From a virus: 23,752 nucleotides of DNA. Of this stretch, positions 1,499 to 15,867 are shown in pieces. The notes under the pieces were generated by a model. That model searched no databases. It worked only from the letters and a program-made list of their open reading frames with translations, and was not told the DNA's origin. Position 1 is the first letter of the stretch. Each line of letters begins with the position of its first letter. Location of the stretch: the UHGV virus genome UHGV-0369329. The stretch is one strand, 5' to 3'. The translations under genes and the position numbers were made by a program.

Positions 1499-3496
1499 TT
1501 ATATTGCAGATATTATAAAACATAATAATTCTTCATATCTTATTCCATATCGCTCACCCCCTTCTATAGATATTCTGCGTTCTCCAGTATCATATTCAAT
1601 TAATTTTTCATCACCGGATTCTTCATCAAAAATTATCTTTTTAGCAATTACTGGTTCGTATTCAGTTTCCCATTTATCATAGCAAAAAAGACCATAGTCG
1701 TTTGCATCAAGCCCTTCTTCAGCAAATGCTTTATATACATCTTGGGCAATAATGCCAAAATGTAATCTAGCATTTTCTCCTTTTTCAATTACTGAATCTA
1801 TAAATCTAAAACAACAAACCAAACCCTTTATTTTATATGCAACACGTCTCTCTGCATCAGTAATCGGTCTTTTATCAGTCTTAACTCGACCATCCGATGT
1901 GTTAATCGTTGAAGTGCCAGCAAATATTGTATTCCACCTTCTGGATGCTGAACCGCAATTTCTAGCGTTATCTGTTGCTGGTTGTACCGACGCATCAAAA
2001 CGAGCATAATTATTCTCATCAGAAACAGGTCCCATCAATCCACTCAAAAAAGGGAGCCCGCTCTGATTAGCAATTATTAATTGGTTGTCACCTGAAGAAA
2101 TTGCCGAACCGGCATTGGTTCCGATAAATATATTACCTGTTCCAGAGCTTAACGATCTACCAGATCTATATCCAAGCATTACATTGTTACTTGCCGAACC
2201 AATAGAATTAAGTGAGTCGGCTCCTACTGCGACATTATTCATCCCTGTAGATGTGCCTGTATAAGGGTTATCTATAGAAGAAATCCCTCTTCCTGATCCG
2301 CTACCAATATATGTATTGTTATCTCCATTTGTAATCTCCCTTCCGGATGCATTGCCTATAAATGTGTTATTATTTAGAATGTTATAAGACAACCTTTTGC
2401 CTGATTGGTCTGTAACAATTCCAGCTCGCATTCCAGCCGCTCGACCTATTGCAACATTACCACTACCAGTATGAAGTTGTTGTAATGCACTTGATCCTAC
2501 TGCAACATTAAAATTTCCTTCTTTATTTTCATTTAGGGCATCGCGCCCAATTCCAATTATGTTACTAGCTGTGGTTGATTTTTTGCACGCATTCACACCA
2601 ATTGCTACAATCTCAGTGCCAGTGCATGGCGATGTATCTGTGAGATCGTCTTGAAGGGTATCACCTGATAATACACCTGTCCCAATTGCTGTAATGTTAT
2701 TGCCCGTGCTAATGTTTCTTCCTGCACTTGGTCCAATCGCAACAACTTGCCCGGATATATCATTTCCATTATATATCTTGCCAGCATCAAAACCAAAAAA
2801 AACATTTCCAATTGTCTGAGCAGGATTTGCAAATGGAATAGGTTCGTCTCCTTTACTTTGTATTATTTTACCAGGGCCATAAAATTTTCCATTAATATAG
2901 TTCTCAATTAAATAAGTACCTTGTGGAACATAAACACCGTCAGGTGAAACTGAAGATGCATAGGAAAATATATGTGTTGCGTCAATATTGCCATTAACAA
3001 TGTCGCTAACATCTTCATGTTTTACAAAATCAAGAATACTAATATTCTCTGCATTTTTATCATGCTGTGTTCGTTTTGTAGAATTAATTAAAGGTTGTTT
3101 TACTGTGATTAATGAATCACCAAGCCCATCATCTGAACTTAAAAGTTCTTGCCTTAACTGATCCGGGTCATACTTCAGCACATTAGGAAAATAAAACTGC
3201 TGCGCACCATATGCATCATAAACAGCCATAGAATGGCCTTGCACAGTTACGAACTTGGCAATCTGTCCGTTATATACCGGATATCCGGCAGCGTTAATGA
3301 TTATTGGTTGCGAAACAGGAATGTGAGAACCGTCTTCGTTCTCTACATAAACCTGAATCTGGTTTTCAGGATTTACCGGGTCAGTGTCAATTTTACCGAT
3401 ATAAATTTTGCCATTGGCTACGGCTTTAAAAGAACGCGCCATAGTGAAGAGTTGCGAAGGCATACTCACTACAACATTGGCTGTAATGTCTGTCAT
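1499..3496 (-). CDS. Tailspike/tail fibre: P22 gp9-like N-terminal head-binding domain, glycine-rich repeat fibre, C-terminal intramolecular chaperone (S74-type) domain
   Basis: N-terminus [43 protein letters not shown]...VLKYDPDQ matches the P22 tailspike head-binding domain. The middle has many G-x-x-A/N-rich repeats. The C-terminus has the TSDGRVK autoproteolysis-type motif followed by a chaperone-like domain. GGAG RBS lies 8 nt upstream of the ATG at 3496. Confidence 0.85.
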
Positions 3497-3628: not shown

Positions 3629-3886
3629 ATGATGTACAGCAAATACGATGAGGCGCAGTTCCACTTGAGGCTTACACACGAGTTGCACGCTAAGATTAAG
3701 CAGCGTGCAAAAATGAATAACAGGTCTATCAATTCCGAAATTGTGGCTACGATGGAAGAATCACTCTCCAAACCATCACCTGTAAGCGGGTATCGTGATG
3801 AAGAAGAGAGGCTGGCCTCATTAATCTCGGAACGAGTAAAAGAAGTTGCGGCTGAAATTCTAAGGAAAGAAAAAACCCGCGATTAA
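3629..3886 (+). CDS. Mnt-like ribbon-helix-helix repressor, 85 aa
   Basis: C-terminal part of track ORF 3233..3886. FHLRLTHELHAKIKQRAKMNNRSINSEIV...SKPSPVSGYRDEEERLASL aligns along its whole length with P22 Mnt as I recall it (FNFRMPMEVREKLKFRAEANGRSMNSELL...SKPSPVTGYRNDAERLADE). The 5' part of the track ORF is antisense to the tailspike gene. Confidence 0.75.
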   Translation: MMYSKYDEAQFHLRLTHELHAKIKQRAKMNNRSINSEIVATMEESLSKPSPVSGYRDEEERLASLISERVKEVAAEILRKEKTRD

Positions 3887-3912: not shown

Positions 3913-4641
3913 TTACGCCACATTTGAGCCATGTAGCAGGTGTTGTAGTGCTTTAACGCCTTCAGAATTGTAACGGAACGCCTCTACCTGTTTGCTGGAA
4001 TGCGCCGATTTATCTAGGAAGAACTTCCCGTACTGCTCAGTTTTGAGGTTGTTTGCGTTAGCAATGCGACCAATCTTGTTGGCCGTTACTCCAAGCTGCT
4101 CTGCAACCTCCCCTGCTGAGTAGTAATGCTCTTCTATTGCCGGAAGAGGTATTGCATTAAAACCAACGAGCGGGTTGATTATACTTGCTGCCGCTGTCTG
4201 CTTTGCCTCAGGCGCAAGATTTGGCATCAGATCGAACAGATTGGTAACAGCTTCAACCGTCATTTTCAATGTTCTCGCTTGACGATACTCAACAAGTCCA
4301 CTCGCTGATTTACCGCTTTTAATGTGCGCTTCTTGCATACTTTCAAGTTGGTCTACCAGTGAGCGGCGAACGGCTTTTGACTCGCGAGCGGCAACTCGCA
4401 ATGCTTGCTTGATTGACATCTCAATGATAACCATCGAAGTTTTGTTCGCTTTTTGCACTACACTTTTTGTGTAGTGCTCTCCATCCAATTCATCTTCAAT
4501 TTTCTCGATGAATTTGTTATTACGAACCTCCGGCTCACCGCACTGTCTACGAGCCTGATTTACCATCTCAAGCAGGCGCTGGCTGTCAATGGTTTTATCC
4601 GTGACAACGGATCCGATGTTTGCTACATTCTTAAAAGTCAT
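3913..4641 (-). CDS. Antirepressor-type protein with C-terminal KilAC/ANT-like segment, 242 aa
   Basis: Start moved to the ATG at 4641 (MTFKNVANIG...), which has an AAGGAA RBS 6 nt upstream; the track ORF starts 17 codons earlier without an RBS. C-terminal YSAGEVAEQLGVTANKIGRIANANNLKTEQYGKFF resembles the KilAC/ANT domain of phage antirepressors. Family assignment is from memory. Confidence 0.55.
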   Translation of the reverse strand: MTFKNVANIGSVVTDKTIDSQRLLEMVNQARRQCGEPEVRNNKFIEKIEDELDGEHYTKSVVQKANKTSMVIIEMSIKQALRVAARESKAVRRSLVDQLESMQEAHIKSGKSASGLVEYRQARTLKMTVEAVTNLFDLMPNLAPEAKQTAAASIINPLVGFNAIPLPAIEEHYYSAGEVAEQLGVTANKIGRIANANNLKTEQYGKFFLDKSAHSSKQVEAFRYNSEGVKALQHLLHGSNVA

Positions 4642-4710
4642 TAGGCATTCCTTATGTGGTAGTAAGGGTGTGACATAGGCCGCCAGCAGCACACTGGCGG
4701 TTTTCTTTTT
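4636..4710 (+). ncRNA. Candidate sar-like antisense RNA, about 75 nt, opposite the RBS and start of the 3913..4641 gene
   Basis: Extended -10 TGcTACATT at 4621-4629 (possible -35 GTGACA at 4601-4606, 17-bp spacer). Intrinsic terminator CCGCCAG-cagcaca-CTGGCGG at 4680-4700 followed by TTTTCTTTTT at 4701-4710. The transcript would be complementary to the AAGGAA RBS (4648-4653) and ATG (4639-4641) of the minus-strand gene. No credible plus-strand CDS here. Confidence 0.45.
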
Positions 4711-4729
4711 GCGCCGTCCGGCGCACCAA

Positions 4730-5356
4730 TCAATGAATCCATTCCTCGCCGCGCAGTTTTGCCAGCATTGGCTGAGCGTTCTTTACGACAAAATTGTTGG
4801 TATCAAGATTCTTCATTTCACGAAGAAGTGATTTCTTGGTTTCTTCTGACATATAGCGAGTCTCATATGCGATATCGTAAATCCTTCCTGAAAGCTCAGA
4901 ACAAATTTGCTTCATTCCTGGGTAGATGTGTTTGCACATTTGTTGACTCTTCTCCATCCACAATTGTAAGTAGCAGAGATTAACCAGTTCTTCGTCAGTA
5001 AACTGTTTTGCAATCGGTGAGCATTCTGCCTGCCGATCCAAAATATCCAGCACCCAGCGGCGGAACTCTTTGGCTACCGGAGTGCGAGCAAACATCGCGA
5101 TTAGGTGGGCACCGCGTAGTGAGAAAACTCGCACTTTTTTGCGATAATTTCCTGAGGTACTCACTTCGAGTACCTGAGTCATTCCGGCGCTAAACTCATC
5201 GCTATACTTGTTATAAATCATTGTTACTGCACGACTATTTGCGTATTTAAGTGCAGATGCAATATTAGATGATGTAAACCAAACACCATGCATATCACGG
5301 GTGGGCACCAACTCAACTCCGTGGAAGTTGTAATCTGATTTTGCTACAATATTCAT
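4730..5356 (-). CDS. Antirepressor (Ant-like) with Bro-N/AntA-type N-terminal domain, 208 aa
   Basis: Start moved to the ATG at 5356 (MNIVAKSDYNFHGVELVP...) with an AAGGAA RBS. HGVWFTSSNIASALKYANSRAVTMI...VRVFSLRGAHLIAMFARTPVAKEFRRWVLDIL fits the Bro-N/antirepressor N-terminal pattern. Sits downstream of the Arc-like gene as in P22 arc-ant. Confidence 0.6.
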   Translation of the reverse strand: MNIVAKSDYNFHGVELVPTRDMHGVWFTSSNIASALKYANSRAVTMIYNKYSDEFSAGMTQVLEVSTSGNYRKKVRVFSLRGAHLIAMFARTPVAKEFRRWVLDILDRQAECSPIAKQFTDEELVNLCYLQLWMEKSQQMCKHIYPGMKQICSELSGRIYDIAYETRYMSEETKKSLLREMKNLDTNNFVVKNAQPMLAKLRGEEWIH

Positions 5357-5431
5357 GTTAGTTTCCTTGCATACGGTTACTGACATAGAAGCCCGACTCG
5401 TGTTCGCGCACTGTCGGGCTTCGCTATTTTT
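5357..5431 (+). ncRNA. Candidate sar-like antisense RNA, about 75 nt, opposite the ant RBS, terminating at the 3' end of the arc-like gene
   Basis: Extended -10 TGcTACAAT at 5342-5350. Terminator hairpin GAAGCCCGAC...GTCGGGCTTC (5388-5422) followed by TATTTTT (5425-5431). The transcript would cover the complement of the ant RBS (5364-5369). Same architecture as P22 sar (promoter near the ant start, terminator at the arc end). Confidence 0.5.
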
Positions 5432-5597
5432 ATGTCCTAGCATTCTTCTCTCCAATCAGTCCGTACACTTTTCTCAATTGATAAATAAGTTCCGTGTTGA
5501 ACTGTCGACACTCTTTTTCTCCATTTCTTTCAATCGCCTTCCTTACATCCTCTGGGAAACGAACCTTGCGTTGATACATGTCTTTTGCTTTTTCCAT
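5430..5597 (-). CDS. Arc-like small ribbon-helix-helix protein, 55 aa; below the length cutoff of the ORF track
   Basis: Hand-translated codon by codon: MEKAKDMYQRKVRFPEDVRKAIERNGEKECRQFNTELIYQLRKVYGLIGEKNART. Strong RBS AAGGAG 5 nt before the ATG at 5597. A beta-strand-like QRKVRFPEDV followed by helix is RHH-like, though the NG...E motif is less canonical than in Arc. Position is upstream of ant and divergent from the Mnt-like gene, as for P22 arc. Confidence 0.5.
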   Translation of the reverse strand: MEKAKDMYQRKVRFPEDVRKAIERNGEKECRQFNTELIYQLRKVYGLIGEKNART

Positions 5598-5720
5598 CTC
5601 CACTCCTTAAATAGCCCCACTGTGGGGCAATCGAAATTGTCACACCGTGCGTCATTGAAGTCAACCCCACCGTGGGGCATAATTTACTTATTGTGAATTT
5701 TTCCTGTTTGGACTAATGGT
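5598..5720. promoter_or_regulatory. Divergent promoter/operator region (Pant-like leftward, Pmnt-like rightward) with twin palindromic operators
   Basis: Palindrome 1 GCCCCACtGTGGGGC at 5614-5628; palindrome 2 CCCCACcGTGGGG at 5665-5677. Plus-strand promoter TTGAAG (5655-5660), 17-bp spacer, CATAAT (5678-5683), with palindrome 2 in the spacer. Minus-strand promoter TTGACT (complement of 5659-5664), 17-bp spacer, GACAAT (complement of 5636-5641), with palindrome 1 over the predicted start/leader. The two -35 hexamers overlap. Confidence 0.6.
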
Positions 5721-6095
5721 ATGAGTAGAGAAGACCCTCAACTTCGGATTAGGCTTCCTGTTGAATTAAAAAAAATAATTGAAGCGTCATCAAAACAAAA
5801 TAATCGTTCTATGAATGCTGAGATTGTCACTCTGCTTGAGTTGGCGATTCGTGTTTGTCGTGATTTTGGGCCGGAGGATGGTCCTATCGTTCAGCAGTTT
5901 AAAGAACAACTAGATGCGATAAACAGAAAATATGATAAAATCGAGCATGAAAAACTTATACCTCAACTTTTAGAAATCATAGAAAAACAGAAAAAACAAG
6001 TAGATAAACTTATTAGCATGGTTGAAAGATCAATTCCTCTTTCAGAGGAATATAAGCAGAAATATCTTGGTGATGACAACAAAAAACCCACCTGA
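5721..6095 (+). CDS. Mnt-like RHH repressor with extended coiled-coil-like C-terminus, 124 aa; positional equivalent of P22 mnt
   Basis: N-terminus MSREDPQLRIRLPVELKKIIEASSKQNNRSMNAEIV matches the Mnt N-terminus (MARDDPHFNFRMPMEVREKLKFRAEANGRSMNSELL as I recall). Divergent from the arc-like gene with the operator region between. Confidence 0.7.
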   Translation: MSREDPQLRIRLPVELKKIIEASSKQNNRSMNAEIVTLLELAIRVCRDFGPEDGPIVQQFKEQLDAINRKYDKIEHEKLIPQLLEIIEKQKKQVDKLISMVERSIPLSEEYKQKYLGDDNKKPT

Positions 6096-6110: not shown

Positions 6111-7079
6111 TTAGATTTCTGGTTTCATTCTTCCGAAAACCTTTTCTATTCCTTTTTCGTATTCTTCTCTTGTCTCACTCATCGCTGCGACACCAAGAAG
6201 CTTACCGATATGCTGACGCAAAGCCTTGACACCAATTTCAGAAAGGAACAGATGCAACTTATCAGATTGTTTTCCGTTCTCGTCTCGGCTGGCTCTAATT
6301 TGTTCAAGGATTTTACCTTTACTCTTTGCTAGCGGGGTGTATATCTGCATGTTGGTTAGCTGCCCAAAACGAATAGGCCGTCCTTTCTCTGGCCTATTCA
6401 GGCCGTACAGTCGATACCACTCCTCGTATAGCTCATCTGGAAATTCCTTTTCATATTGACGAGCCTCTTCACGAACAAACGCTTTGAACTCGTCAATGAC
6501 AGCCTGAACTTCTGGACGATAACCAGCAAGCGCATACGCAACCCCCTTAATTCCCGCCTTAGCGGAGGCATTAATAAGTCTCTGTGCTGCGGCGGCTGCC
6601 TTTAACCGTGATTGTGGTAGATCGTCATTATCTTTGGCTTCTATTAGTGCCCTACCAATATCAACAATTGCTGTAATGTCATAACCTAACGCTTGATGAA
6701 CGGTTTTAGACTTCGAAGTAAGTTGAAATTTATAGGGATTTTCCATTTTTCGCTGCAATTCTAGATCTCGGTATTTGCTCATATACTGAGCGCCAAGCAG
6801 TTGATCTAAATCCCTGGCATGTTCACCAATCCCTAGCAACTGAGATAATCCAGTTTTCGTAACAACGACAGTTTTCGACTCGTCATCCAGTACATAACAT
6901 TCAGCATCAATGCCAAAATCATCTAAAAAGTTACCACGATGAGTTGCCCTGAGAATCTTACTTTTCCATCTTGCAGCAGCTGCTTTCTTTGCTATTTCAG
7001 AACGCTGCTCTTTAGTCAGCGACTTTGCGCGAGCGATCCCGCCCTTAGCTTTCCCTTCGCCACTTTTCTTTTCAGTCAT
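6111..7079 (-). CDS. Hypothetical 322-aa protein in the sieA/accessory slot; basic N-terminus with HTH-like SEIAKKAAAARW motif
   Basis: Start moved to the ATG at 7079 (MTEKKSGEGKAKGGIARAKSLTKEQRSEIAKKAAAARW...). Hydrophilic with no obvious TM segment. Not recognisable as any P22 structural protein. A possible P63C-type assignment is only a vague recollection. Confidence 0.55.
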   Translation of the reverse strand: MTEKKSGEGKAKGGIARAKSLTKEQRSEIAKKAAAARWKSKILRATHRGNFLDDFGIDAECYVLDDESKTVVVTKTGLSQLLGIGEHARDLDQLLGAQYMSKYRDLELQRKMENPYKFQLTSKSKTVHQALGYDITAIVDIGRALIEAKDNDDLPQSRLKAAAAAQRLINASAKAGIKGVAYALAGYRPEVQAVIDEFKAFVREEARQYEKEFPDELYEEWYRLYGLNRPEKGRPIRFGQLTNMQIYTPLAKSKGKILEQIRASRDENGKQSDKLHLFLSEIGVKALRQHIGKLLGVAAMSETREEYEKGIEKVFGRMKPEI

Positions 7080-7170
7080 AATGCAAGCACCTTTGTTGTG
7101 ATGTATGCTTGCATTATATACACTGTACACACATACAAGCAAGCATAAAGCTAAAACAAAATGCTTGCAT
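7080..7170. repeat. Four copies of a TGCTTGCATTA / ATGCWWGCAT motif in alternating orientation in a divergent intergenic region
   Basis: ATGCAAGCAC at 7081-7090 (reverse), ATGCTTGCAT at 7105-7114, AAGCAAGCAT at 7137-7146 (reverse, partial), ATGCTTGCAT at 7161-7170. Copies at 7105 and 7161 share ATGCTTGCATTA; the copy at 7081 abuts the start codon of the 322-aa gene. Confidence 0.6.
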
Positions 7171-7441: not shown

Positions 7442-9274
7442 TCACTGCTGTGTTGCCTCAGTGGCAAGCAGCGGTCTGATGGCATTCGCAGCGTTATTCA
7501 GCGCTCTTTCATAGGCTGGCGTTCCTGCTTTGGTGTTTGCCAGACGTAAGAGCGCATTCCTGGCCATAGGGCTTTCATAAACCCTCGACATAAGGCCAAT
7601 CCCTGTTTCCCCAGCCAATAGCGCGCCTCCGGTTTTTAGGTTACCAATAACCCTTACCAAAGGCGCGAGTGTCATGCCAGTCTTCGTCACAACATTAGCC
7701 TCAGATGCTCTTTTGGTAGCATCGAGAATAGATAACATCCCCTCTATCTCTTTTCCGTTCTTCCCACCAAATACAGTTTTAAACACCTGACCATTTGCTT
7801 GTTTTTGCAGCTTGCCAAGCTCGGTCATCATTTTCTGAGGGCTGTCACCTACCTTGTCAGCTATTTTGCTGATATATGCCGCCCTTAGCATGTCTTTACC
7901 TTTTTGATCGAGTTTCCCGTACAATCGAGCTATATCTGACCCATATTGTCCATACACAATGGTATTTACAGCCTCGGGAGTTAAATCTCCTTTGTTTAGA
8001 ACGTTTTTAAGGCGCGTTTGAGTTGCATGTGTTGCCATTTTTGCATAATCAGCTTTTCCCGCTCTCCATGCTGAAGCATCTTTTGGGCTAAGTCCTTTCG
8101 CTATAGATTTACTAAGGCTATTGGTTAGCGAGTTATAGACCCTGTCGACCATTGTTTGCGACATTGATGGCAGAACTGTACGATCGCCTTTTACGTCAAT
8201 GCGGAACTGAGTTCTCAGCTTATCAAGTAACTCAAAGGCATCATCTCCATTTGTTATCTCCTGAATGGCATTCTTATAATCATTAAGCGCAGAAATGGTC
8301 TGGGTGTCAGAAACACCTTTAAGTTTCCCAAGTTCGTTTACTGCTCCGTCGATAGCTCTTATGGCGCCACTTGTATCAACTGGCTTTCCAACCATTCTTC
8401 CTGACAGGCTGTTTAGTTTTGACTTGGCTAACGATTTTTCCCTTGCAACGCCTGACTTTAGACTATCAACGACTACAGATGGATCGTAGTCGCCGTATTT
8501 TTCGGTGAAGCGATTAACAAGCTTGGTTCTGGCATCCTGCTGTGCGGCTCTCATTGGTCCAGTACCAGCTATGACTCCTTCTGAGTAACCCTGCAGTTGA
8601 TTGCCAAGTTTTGTTTTTGGAGGAACTACATCCGATGTCATAACTGGTACATCTGCCGCAGCGGCACGCTTGAGCAATTGCTGATCTGCTGGTGATATTT
8701 CGCCACGAACAGCAGTAATTCCACGCCCTATTCCCTTTGCTGCTGCGGAAAGAACCCCCTGAGCGGCAAGGTTAACTCCGGCATTTTTAGCTGCATTTTG
8801 TGCGAAATCGCCTTCCTGATTTGCGGCCTCTGCCAGTGATCCAATAGCCATGCTTCCTGCCGTTCCAACTCCTGGAACTAAATACCCGCCAATTGTTTCT
8901 CCAGCTTGCGCATAAGGGTCTGTTGGTCGATCTACTGGACGATAGACATCGTCCAAAACCTTGGGGCCACCAAGCCCCTGGCTGATTGCATTAATCAGAC
9001 TTGCGCCACCCTGCAATACGTCAAATGGTATGTTTACCAGACCACGACCAGCCTGCTCTGCAATTTGCCCTGCACTTTGACCACCAGTGAGCCAATCGCC
9101 AGCTTGTTGCATCAATGATGGTTCTTCCCGTGTTGGTGCATTATTGTCCTGATTAACTGTTTGTTGCTGAACAGCCTGACCAGCAAAATACTCATCAATG
9201 GCGGTGCCAATATCTTCCGTGCTCGTACCATCAGGGAAGGTAAATGTCTTACCGTTTGCAGTTACTTTCATCAT
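7442..9274 (-). CDS. Ejection (injection) protein, P22 gp16 homologue, 610 aa
   Basis: Size and position (last gene of the virion module, after the gp20 homologue) match P22 gene 16 (609 aa). Assignment is by synteny and length rather than recalled sequence. Confidence 0.8.
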
Positions 9275-14613: not shown

Positions 14614-15867
14614 TTACTGCCCGGCAATAACGATGCCCGTATATTCAGGAACAAGTACAGAGCAACCGTACAGAGTGGTGAAACGAGCAGTGGTTACGCC
14701 TTTGATGTGGTCGAAGGCGTAAGACATGATCAGCGTAGCGCCCTGCTCTGTGGTTGCTGTCATTACCTGTGGACCCTGACCAGTCGGGAACGCCAGTTTG
14801 CCGTACATCAGCTCAACAGAACCATCAGCCCAGAACAGGTTAGCAGGTGCTGCGTTCTTGTTGAGAATGGTGATTGCTGCTGATGCTGCCGGTTTGGCAT
14901 CGACGTTTGCATATGGACGACTCGCAACATCGGTATTTTCAACAGGGAGAATCTTTGGAGAGATTGTTACGGTAGTTCCGCTAACAGCCAGAACACGGAA
15001 TACCTGCGGTTGCCCGGTGGTATCTTTTGTGATCTGGTGTACGGAATTCACACCGGCAATGGTGAACGCATCACCAACCTGCAAGCCAGATGCAGATACC
15101 GTAATAGTCCCCTGTCGGTTATCAACTGGCATACCATTTGAATCTTTCGCTTCAACCTTGTGTTCAGGTTGGCCTGATACTGTCAAGGATTCAGTGCTTC
15201 CTTTCGGTAATCGACCAGAAATATCGGTCTTGTAGCTATCAAAGGAAGCAACCGGAGGGATCTGCGCTTTTTCGTATGCTGTCAGGGTTGCGCCCTGAGC
15301 ATAGGCACGGTGACCAAGCTCGCCAGCAAGGTCTTTGTAGTTGAAGGGGTTCCAGAAAGAGCGACGGTTGATACCCTGCGGTACACCTATCGCCGTCATG
15401 GTGGCATCAATACCTGCCGCACAGTTCCACAGATCACGGCCCTGTGTACCTGTGGTTGAGTCAGCCATCGTGATCACGTTAGTAGCACGCTGCGTAACCA
15501 TGGAAATCAGGTCAGAGTCAATCTGTGCAGCAAGGCGCATACCTGCGGCTCGACCAGCTTCAGTTTTATGTTCCGGGTCACGCATTTCACGCGCATCCAG
15601 AGTGTACAGAATGTTTTTCGGCTCCTTGAACACAGAAGGAACAAGGCGCTGAACCAGTGCTGTTGGCGTTTTGCTGCTGAGATCGAGGCCTTCCTCAATG
15701 TTCATGTGGTAATGCTGCGGACGATACAGAACATCACCTGCTCGCTGCATTGCGGTATCACCGGGACGGAATTTTTTAGCGTTACGGGAAACTACGCAGG
15801 CGGCCTCAAAGCCTTCAACGTAGTTTTCGAACATGATTTCAAGGTCTTTTGCTAATTGGTTAGCCAT
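14614..15867 (-). CDS. Major coat protein, P22 gp5-type, 417 aa
   Basis: Synteny after scaffold; conserved blocks resembling P22 coat (AGVNSVHQITKD versus AGVKFLGQMAKN; NLFWADGSVELM versus NVFWADDAIRIV, from memory). Confidence 0.85.
   Translation of the reverse strand: MANQLAKDLEIMFENYVEGFEAACVVSRNAKKFRPGDTAMQRAGDVLYRPQHYHMNIEEGLDLSSKTPTALVQRLVPSVFKEPKNILYTLDAREMRDPEHKTEAGRAAGMRLAAQIDSDLISMVTQRATNVITMADSTTGTQGRDLWNCAAGIDATMTAIGVPQGINRRSFWNPFNYKDLAGELGHRAYAQGATLTAYEKAQIPPVASFDSYKTDISGRLPKGSTESLTVSGQPEHKVEAKDSNGMPVDNRQGTITVSASGLQVGDAFTIAGVNSVHQITKDTTGQPQVFRVLAVSGTTVTISPKILPVENTDVASRPYANVDAKPAASAAITILNKNAAPANLFWADGSVELMYGKLAFPTGQGPQVMTATTEQGATLIMSYAFDHIKGVTTARFTTLYGCSVLVPEYTGIVIAGQ

Follow-up and report, generated by a model that had tools for sequence, protein, structure and literature searches.

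We describe here a candidate antisense RNA gene in a 23,752-nucleotide (nt) stretch of the virus genome UHGV-0369329, read as one strand from 5' to 3' and hereafter called the window, by which we mean the whole stretch that was analysed. Positions 5357-5431 of its plus strand very probably encode a cis-antisense RNA of about 75 nt, a divergent homologue of the sar RNA of phage P22, which would block translation of ant, the antirepressor gene of an arc-ant operon on the opposite strand. The features of the element, its positional match to P22, the sequence homology, the conservation and the covariation of both hairpins are established by the present analysis. The element is a sar subtype outside the reach of the curated Rfam model, and a sar homologue in a P22-like prophage is as such unsurprising to the specialist. 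Its parts, and the two genes that flank it, are as follows.

5322-5327, plus strand: weak -35-like hexamer TGGAAG, matching TTGACA at three of six positions, with a 17-nt spacer to the -10.
5342-5350, plus strand: extended -10 TGcTACAAT (TGCTACAAT), inside ant codons 3-5 (I-V-A).
5357-5431, plus strand: predicted sar-like antisense RNA of about 75 nt, delimited by the -10 spacing, the P22 sar 5' end, the fold and covariance models.
5357-5384, plus strand: 5' hairpin of the predicted fold, with the stem GUUAGU (5357-5362) / ACUGAC (5379-5384).
5363-5368, plus strand: anti-Shine-Dalgarno (anti-SD) sequence UUCCUU, the loop segment of the 5' hairpin that is complementary to the ant Shine-Dalgarno (SD) sequence.
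5388-5422, plus strand: terminator hairpin, made up of a 10-base-pair (bp) outer stem (5388-5397/5413-5422) and a 4-bp inner helix.
5423-5431, plus strand: terminator tail GCTATTTTT (= GCUAUUUUU), whose U-run at 5427-5431 overlaps the arc stop codon.
4730-5356, minus strand: ant, the antirepressor target gene, with its ATG at 5354-5356 and its SD, AAGGAAA, at 5362-5368.
5430-5603, minus strand: arc-like ribbon-helix-helix (RHH) gene, first of the arc-ant operon, assigned from Pfam Arc, PHROG and comparison with P22 Arc.

A preliminary description of this region had read an extended -10, TGcTACAAT, at 5342-5350 of the plus strand, and the motif is found exactly there. It does adjoin the complement of the ant start codon, as had been claimed, at a distance of 3 nt and not the 4 nt given, the complement lying at 5354-5356. 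The 10-bp stem is likewise present, its arms being GAAGCCCGAC at 5388-5397 and GTCGGGCTTC at 5413-5422; the placing of this hairpin about 75 nt downstream was mistaken, as it begins 31 nt past the predicted start and the figure of about 75 nt belongs to the whole transcript. The U-run assigned to 5425-5431 overlaps the arc stop codon (TAA on the minus strand, 5430-5432) as described, and is not uninterrupted, 5425-5431 reading TATTTTT with five T at 5427-5431. The inner helix prolongs the terminator stem, leaving an apical region of 15 nt. The spacing from the -10 and the annotated 5' end of P22 sar place the predicted start of the RNA at G5357, which is one base away from the ant AUG. The transcript is complementary to the ant ribosome-binding site (RBS), in agreement with the earlier proposal, and the predicted pairing sets the anti-SD (RNA positions 7-12) opposite the ant SD; with a mean unpaired probability of 0.66 the anti-SD is mostly unpaired in the fold. 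At the sequence level, the element has a predicted promoter of its own inside the 5' end of ant, opposing the arc-ant promoter.

From these parts the following course of events can be proposed. RNA polymerase would initiate at the extended -10, within ant codons 3-5 of the other strand, and start transcription at about G5357, one base off the ant AUG. The transcript would cross the ant SD and the entire arc-ant spacer in antisense before the intrinsic terminator, consisting of the hairpin at 5388-5422 and the U-run at 5427-5431, ended it over the arc stop codon. The RNA would form two hairpins that present UUCCUU in the first loop, and would pair with positions -1 to -75 of the arc-ant mRNA, counted from the ant AUG and taking in the SD, so that initiation would be blocked. 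The low Ant synthesis that results would help the prophage repressor to stay protected.

Folding of the region, a check suggested in the preliminary description, gave two hairpins: the minimum free energy of the 75-nt stretch is -33.0 kcal/mol, against -16.45 +/- 2.98 kcal/mol for shuffled sequences (z = -5.55), none of 200 shuffles being as stable, and the 5' hairpin has an energy of -9.4 kcal/mol. For detection by covariance we used a leave-out model, R2, comprising 46 members including P22 sar, each at most 58% identical to the window RNA, with filters off. It finds exactly 5357-5431 on the plus strand, end to end, at 37.7 bits (E ~2e-7), whereas no other site in the window scores above 9.3 bits. 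A caveat is that the seed set had been gathered by means of the GARGCCC/GGGCTTC stem ends, which the window has too. With covariance model R1, 5357-5431 is the sole site in the window. A generic promoter and terminator scan of the window did not flag the sar-type element: the terminator was missed because its apical region of 15 nt exceeds the loop limit of 8 of the simple scan, and the promoter because its -35 is too weak. It is the combination of features that lies beyond chance, rather than the -10 motif by itself.

The window geometry equals that of annotated P22 sar within a few bases, which bears out the arrangement claimed in the preliminary description. In the P22 record sar occupies 15021-15090, read from 15090 to 15021, its promoter (15097-15125) falls within the first part of ant, whose ATG is at 15091, and the sar terminator overlaps the arc stop codon at 15020-15022. 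Both elements are thus antisense to the arc-ant spacer, beginning beside the ant AUG and terminating over the arc stop. The P22 -10, TGcTATACT, stands at the same offset from the ant ATG, giving a common form TGcTAnAnT over ant codons 3-5, and the annotated P22 -35, GTGTTA, is as weak as TGGAAG in the window. Alignment with the P22 sar region, also suggested at the outset, recovered common sequence blocks, namely TTGCTAnAnTATTCATGTTnGTTT, TTACTGACA and GAAGCCC...GGGCTTC. The minimum-energy fold is the same two-hairpin structure, the +1 G closing the first stem in both, and the target, by homology, would be the same, the ant RBS. The two RNAs differ in that the window RNA is about 48% identical to P22 sar in a structural alignment, measures 75 nt as against 68-70 nt, and has a terminator stem with another inner sequence and a bulge; moreover, the window antirepressor is a 208-amino-acid (aa) Bro-N/P22_AR_C protein, as against the 300-aa Ant of P22. 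P22 sar is a 69-nt RNA that represses Ant through pairing with its mRNA (PMC3134472, PMC13397905, PMC11016777, PMC2629481); it has been experimentally detected (PMC13397905), and was seen again by RNA-seq in 2026.

A first set of relatives was collected with a structural pattern in which the -10 and the outer bases of the stem were constrained, and yielded 69 distinct cores from at least 120 viral contigs. Sixty-five of these are true members, with CAT 0-3 nt after the -10, and the other four are chance matches. The antirepressor start codon follows the -10 by 3 nt in 63 of the 65 members and abuts it in two; in 64 of them CAT opens an opposite-strand open reading frame (ORF) of about 190-345 aa, two reaching the contig end, and at locus L073 it opens one of only 27 codons. 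In most relatives the arc-like stop lies within the T-run, usually 4-7 nt past the stem. Because the pattern had fixed the -10 and the outer stem bases, we used from this set the unconstrained parts only. Folded singly, 64 of the 65 relatives take the two-hairpin shape, and the arms of the first stem vary yet remain complementary (GUUAGU/ACUGAC, GUCAAU/GUUGAU, GUCGAU/UUCGAU, GUCGUU/UACGAU, GUCUA/UGGAC). In an arm-swap control, in which the 5' arm was exchanged between subtypes, native hairpins had a mean of -7.4 kcal/mol as against -4.45 kcal/mol for the chimeras, no chimera reaching the value of the window hairpin.

Column-wise covariation in a plain MAFFT alignment (A2) was unusable for stem 1, the 3' arm being out of register between subtypes, and we used the single-sequence folds, the arm-swap control and a model-registered alignment in place of the A2 column count. 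In the model-registered alignment, where the outer three pairs of stem 1 are still partly misregistered (65.6% paired), 89.6% of cells are paired as against 39-50% with slid partners, and 108 cells are changed on both sides as against at most 29; none of 500 shuffles reaches the observed values. In the terminator stem, pair 45/68 is seen as UG, GC, AU, UA and CG across the family. Covariation gives strong support to both helices. The common blocks, the same two-hairpin fold and a continuous covarying family that includes P22 sar together argue that the window element is homologous to P22 sar, beyond mere analogy. Within the family, 5' hairpin and terminator types are variously combined, GUCGAU-type hairpins occurring with at least six different terminator stems. 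Some contigs, L052 among them (1226-1299 and 4268-4342), have two sar-type elements of different subtypes a few kb apart, and several Xenorhabdus genomes (L151, L175) have multiple sar-type copies.

The same subtype as in the window was found by BLAST in Escherichia phage JEP4 and in E. coli prophages, at 89-97% identity and with the same ant 5' end, and the terminator stem of JEP4 carries compensatory changes relative to the window. Among 5426 complete E. coli genomes, 78 have the module conserved at 90-97%. JEP4 and most E. coli copies differ from the window in having another arc allele past the terminator. Different prophages have in common only 5357-5720, only 5200-5432/5433, only 5318-5432/5433 or only 5318-5356, and the boundaries of these BLAST matches coincide with the upstream edge of the promoter (5318), the predicted start (5357) and the end of the terminator (5432/5433). 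The E. coli and phage records examined list no RNA feature over the element. At locus L005 (E. coli CFSAN018748, 1430-2235) the same sar and arc accompany a different antirepressor of 306 aa; here the ATG is shifted by 3 nt, yet the spacing from the -10 to the +1 G, the 5' end of the RNA, is unchanged. In this prophage, a lambda-like siphovirus, the module is flanked by the tail genes for minor tail protein L and a C40 peptidase; it is therefore not confined to P22-like podoviruses.

Several points weigh against reading 5357-5431 as a sar homologue. The Rfam sar model RF00262 gives no match in the window at its gathering threshold (43 bits), and none on 5250-5750 even at E <= 10. The -10 motif by itself occurs in the window at the level of chance, with two matches against 1.68 expected, and the -35 (TGGAAG, 3/6) is weak. 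The -10 and the outer stem bases of the first relative set, being fixed by the pattern, are not independent evidence. All 171 distinct antirepressors, with the first 20 residues removed, form one homology cluster, and since they are all homologous, part of the -10 conservation could reflect the protein N-terminus. Finally, it is from P22 that we infer promoter activity, accumulation of the RNA and repression of ant by pairing. As to the first point, RF00262 scores P22 itself at 97.8 bits and recognises five of 19 subtype representatives, the window subtype (L001, L005) being among those missed; because it recognises so few subtypes, we read the miss as a limit of the model, and it says more about a narrow model seed than about a lack of homology. 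The best resemblance in Rfam was to the SymR antitoxin RNA (RF01809), at 23.9 bits and E = 0.028 against a gathering threshold of 61; this candidate is below threshold and was rejected, the likeness being a generic one among two-hairpin antisense RNAs and no homology. TGCTACAAT occurs a second time in the window, at 2603-2611 within the tailspike-like ORF, and we attribute this occurrence to chance.

The chance frequency of the -10, the weak -35 and the homologous Ant proteins, whose N-terminal codons may be kept for protein reasons, would also suit a different explanation, according to which the hairpin and T-run are only a structural or terminator element (a stabiliser of the arc-ant mRNA, a processing site, or a site where stray plus-strand transcription ends), TGcTACAAT arises only from the conserved N-terminal codons of Ant and no discrete RNA is made. 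We consider this improbable. The hairpin does form in the arc-ant mRNA on the sense (minus) strand as well, but no T-run follows it there; it is therefore not an arc terminator, and transcription of arc-ant should pass it. Covariation is seen also in the 5' hairpin, a part with no function in termination; the -10 keeps its distance from the +1 G where the ATG shifts (L005); and the homologous P22 element is an RNA that has been detected by experiment (PMC13397905).

The promoter itself was judged on a promoter-free scan and on the BLAST matches, because the first pattern had fixed the -10. The scan covered one genome per species and specified CAT, the first RNA bases and the stem ends, and nothing upstream. 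The hexamer TAnnnT stands exactly 3 nt before CAT in all 39 matches with Enterobacterales titles, drawn from Xenorhabdus, Pectobacterium, Serratia, Proteus, Providencia, Citrobacter, Pantoea, Rahnella and Kluyvera, and at that offset in three of 43 non-Enterobacterales loci (two Acinetobacter and one Chryseobacterium-titled record). Hexamer-carrying matches have TG at -15/-14 in 42 of 54 cases, and TGGAAN occupies the -35 position in 18 of the 54. On the ant strand, the hexamer always overlies an ANT codon followed by an NTA codon, and every Ile there is encoded by ATA, a rare Ile codon in these bacteria. This codon pattern points to selection at the DNA level, and, together with the TG, speaks for a promoter and against a mere by-product of Ant codons, an argument that the homology of all the antirepressors weakens somewhat. 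The converse idea, that the promoter imposes a common N-terminus on unrelated antirepressors, was rejected, the 171 proteins forming a single homology cluster. Outside Enterobacterales, the opposite-strand ORFs at the three loci measure 269 aa (L130, Acinetobacter), 240 aa (L134, Chryseobacterium-titled) and 37 aa (L191, Acinetobacter); L134 also has the second antisense unit described below, and its assembly could be mislabelled or contaminated.

Still less probable, in our view, is that the element is a decaying sar relic in a prophage whose immI region is no longer functional. The arc-like ORF falls slightly under the Pfam cut-off and the exact arc/sar/ant combination was found at full length in none of the 5426 complete E. 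coli genomes, which a relic would explain. Decay, however, is not what the parts display: no damage is seen in the promoter, in either hairpin, in the U-run or in the reading frames of ant and arc, ant is full length with both of its domains, and the stem changes in relatives are compensatory, not disruptive. A protein-coding function of the plus strand here, in place of an RNA regulator, is hardly credible, for although the six-frame list contains a mechanical ORF at 5355-5696 (113 aa), its ATG at 5355 precedes the point where transcription is predicted to begin, the terminator would end it at 5431, 25 codons in, it runs antisense through a recognisable arc gene, and past 5433 unrelated arc alleles replace the sequence in relatives.

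Other small phage RNAs invite comparison with the predicted sar homologue. The c4 RNA of phages P1 and P7 is an antisense RNA that limits antirepressor synthesis in the secondary immunity region immI; it is processed out of the transcript that also carries its target, its sites of action are short and lie upstream, and it is not a convergently transcribed cis-antisense RNA. We know of no sequence relationship between c4 and sar. Lambda OOP, P22 sas and the chromosomal SymR resemble the window RNA in being short, in having their own promoter, in ending at a terminator and in being fully complementary to a target mRNA in its 5' or 3' region; they differ from it in their targets and have no homology to it. 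The mechanism of OOP differs as well, being RNase III-dependent decay (reference list of PMC3134472).

Between ant and the next antirepressor gene, at about 4601-4711 of the plus strand, we observed a second unit that follows the same logic in unrelated sequence.

4601-4629, plus strand: promoter-like site GTGACA-17-TACATT with TG.
About 4636-4711, plus strand: predicted RNA.
4639-4641, plus strand: complement of the start codon of ORF 3913-4641, with the SD complement (anti-SD) also present.
4677-4703, plus strand: hairpin, followed by a T-run.

A pattern scan found relatives of this unit in at least 120 viral contigs, with 52 distinct RNAs, all 52 of which fold as a 5' hairpin plus a terminator. 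Read as its reverse complement, the -10 gives an N-V-A codon triplet, which lies 9, 15, 18 or 24 nt from the start codon depending on the type of N-terminus, the distance from hexamer to hairpin being held at 48-55 nt. No Rfam family matches the unit, nor do the sar covariance models R1 and R2.

Taken more widely, we suggest, tentatively, that the antirepressor operon may be under two tandem, independently promoted cis-antisense RNAs, the sar homologue and this uncatalogued family at about 4636-4711, and that the sar family may be far more diverse than its curated model, with many covarying subtypes whose ends fall at the boundaries of shared sequence between prophages. Ant inactivates the prophage repressor, and an RNA brake on Ant would therefore affect the establishment and maintenance of lysogeny and the influence of co-resident prophages; if sar acts in trans between such prophages, the subtypes could set the specificity of cross-regulation. 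No more than about a quarter of the sampled subtypes is recognised by the curated Rfam sar model, and because RF00262 misses most of them the regulator is unannotated in the E. coli prophage and phage records that we examined. With a sar model of wider reach and with the second antisense unit, such controls could be mapped across Enterobacterales prophages.

The whole window is the end of a P22-like (Lederbergvirus-type) prophage, and the sar-type element sits in a region with a P22 immI-like layout. The remaining features of this setting are the following.

25-96: tRNA-Arg(CCU).
225-1418: integrase gene.
1499-3496, minus strand: tailspike gene.
3913-4641, minus strand: second antirepressor-like gene (PHROG anti-repressor, E = 7e-101).
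5611-5683, strand not assigned: arc-ant control region, with overlapping promoter-like sites and two operator-like palindromes.
5721-6095, plus strand: gene for a 124-aa RHH protein, divergent from the arc-ant control region.
6111-7082, minus strand: P63C-domain ORF.
7442-9274, minus strand: gene-16-like ORF.

The tRNA-Arg(CCU) beside the integrase gene probably marks the prophage attachment site. The integrase gene directly adjoins the tailspike gene, without intervening O-antigen conversion genes. In the operon, the arc-like protein scores 19.1 bits with Pfam Arc, against a cut-off of 20.4, matches the PHROG Arc-like repressor with E = 5.5e-6 and is 33% identical to P22 Arc across 40 aa (E = 3e-5); it is probably a distant Arc homologue. 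The ant product matches Pfam Bro-N (41.7 bits) and P22_AR_C (49.3 bits), each over its cut-off, and the PHROG anti-repressor Ant (E = 4.6e-52), and its ATG at 5354-5356 is the start codon annotated in phage JEP4. Gene callers sometimes run ant across an unannotated sar. A longest-ORF reading of the window, 4730-5455, stretches the antirepressor coding sequence (CDS) over the sar region into an overlap with arc, and the deposited CDS of L003 (PhiR5_1, 867-1616) and L004 (SPN3UB, 897-1619) are likewise extended upstream across sar into arc. A start at the conserved ATG, which has an SD and lies 3 nt from the -10, is more likely than one farther upstream.

The control region contains a minus-strand promoter-like site, TTGACT-17-GACAAT (5664 to 5636), a plus-strand one, TTGAAG-17-CATAAT (5655-5683), and operator-like palindromes CCCCAC(T/C)GTGGGGCA at 5615-5629 and 5665-5679, 50 bp apart; judged from sequence only, it resembles the annotated P22 Pant/Pmnt region in position and layout. 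The divergent RHH ORF at 5721-6095 has only the RHH N-terminus in common with P22 Mnt (33% identity over 43 aa). A full-length homologue of P22 Mnt (45% identity over 73 aa, E = 2e-23) is found instead at 3632-3886 on the plus strand, between the second antirepressor gene and the tailspike gene, where it converges on the operon from its far side, and JEP4 has the same arrangement.

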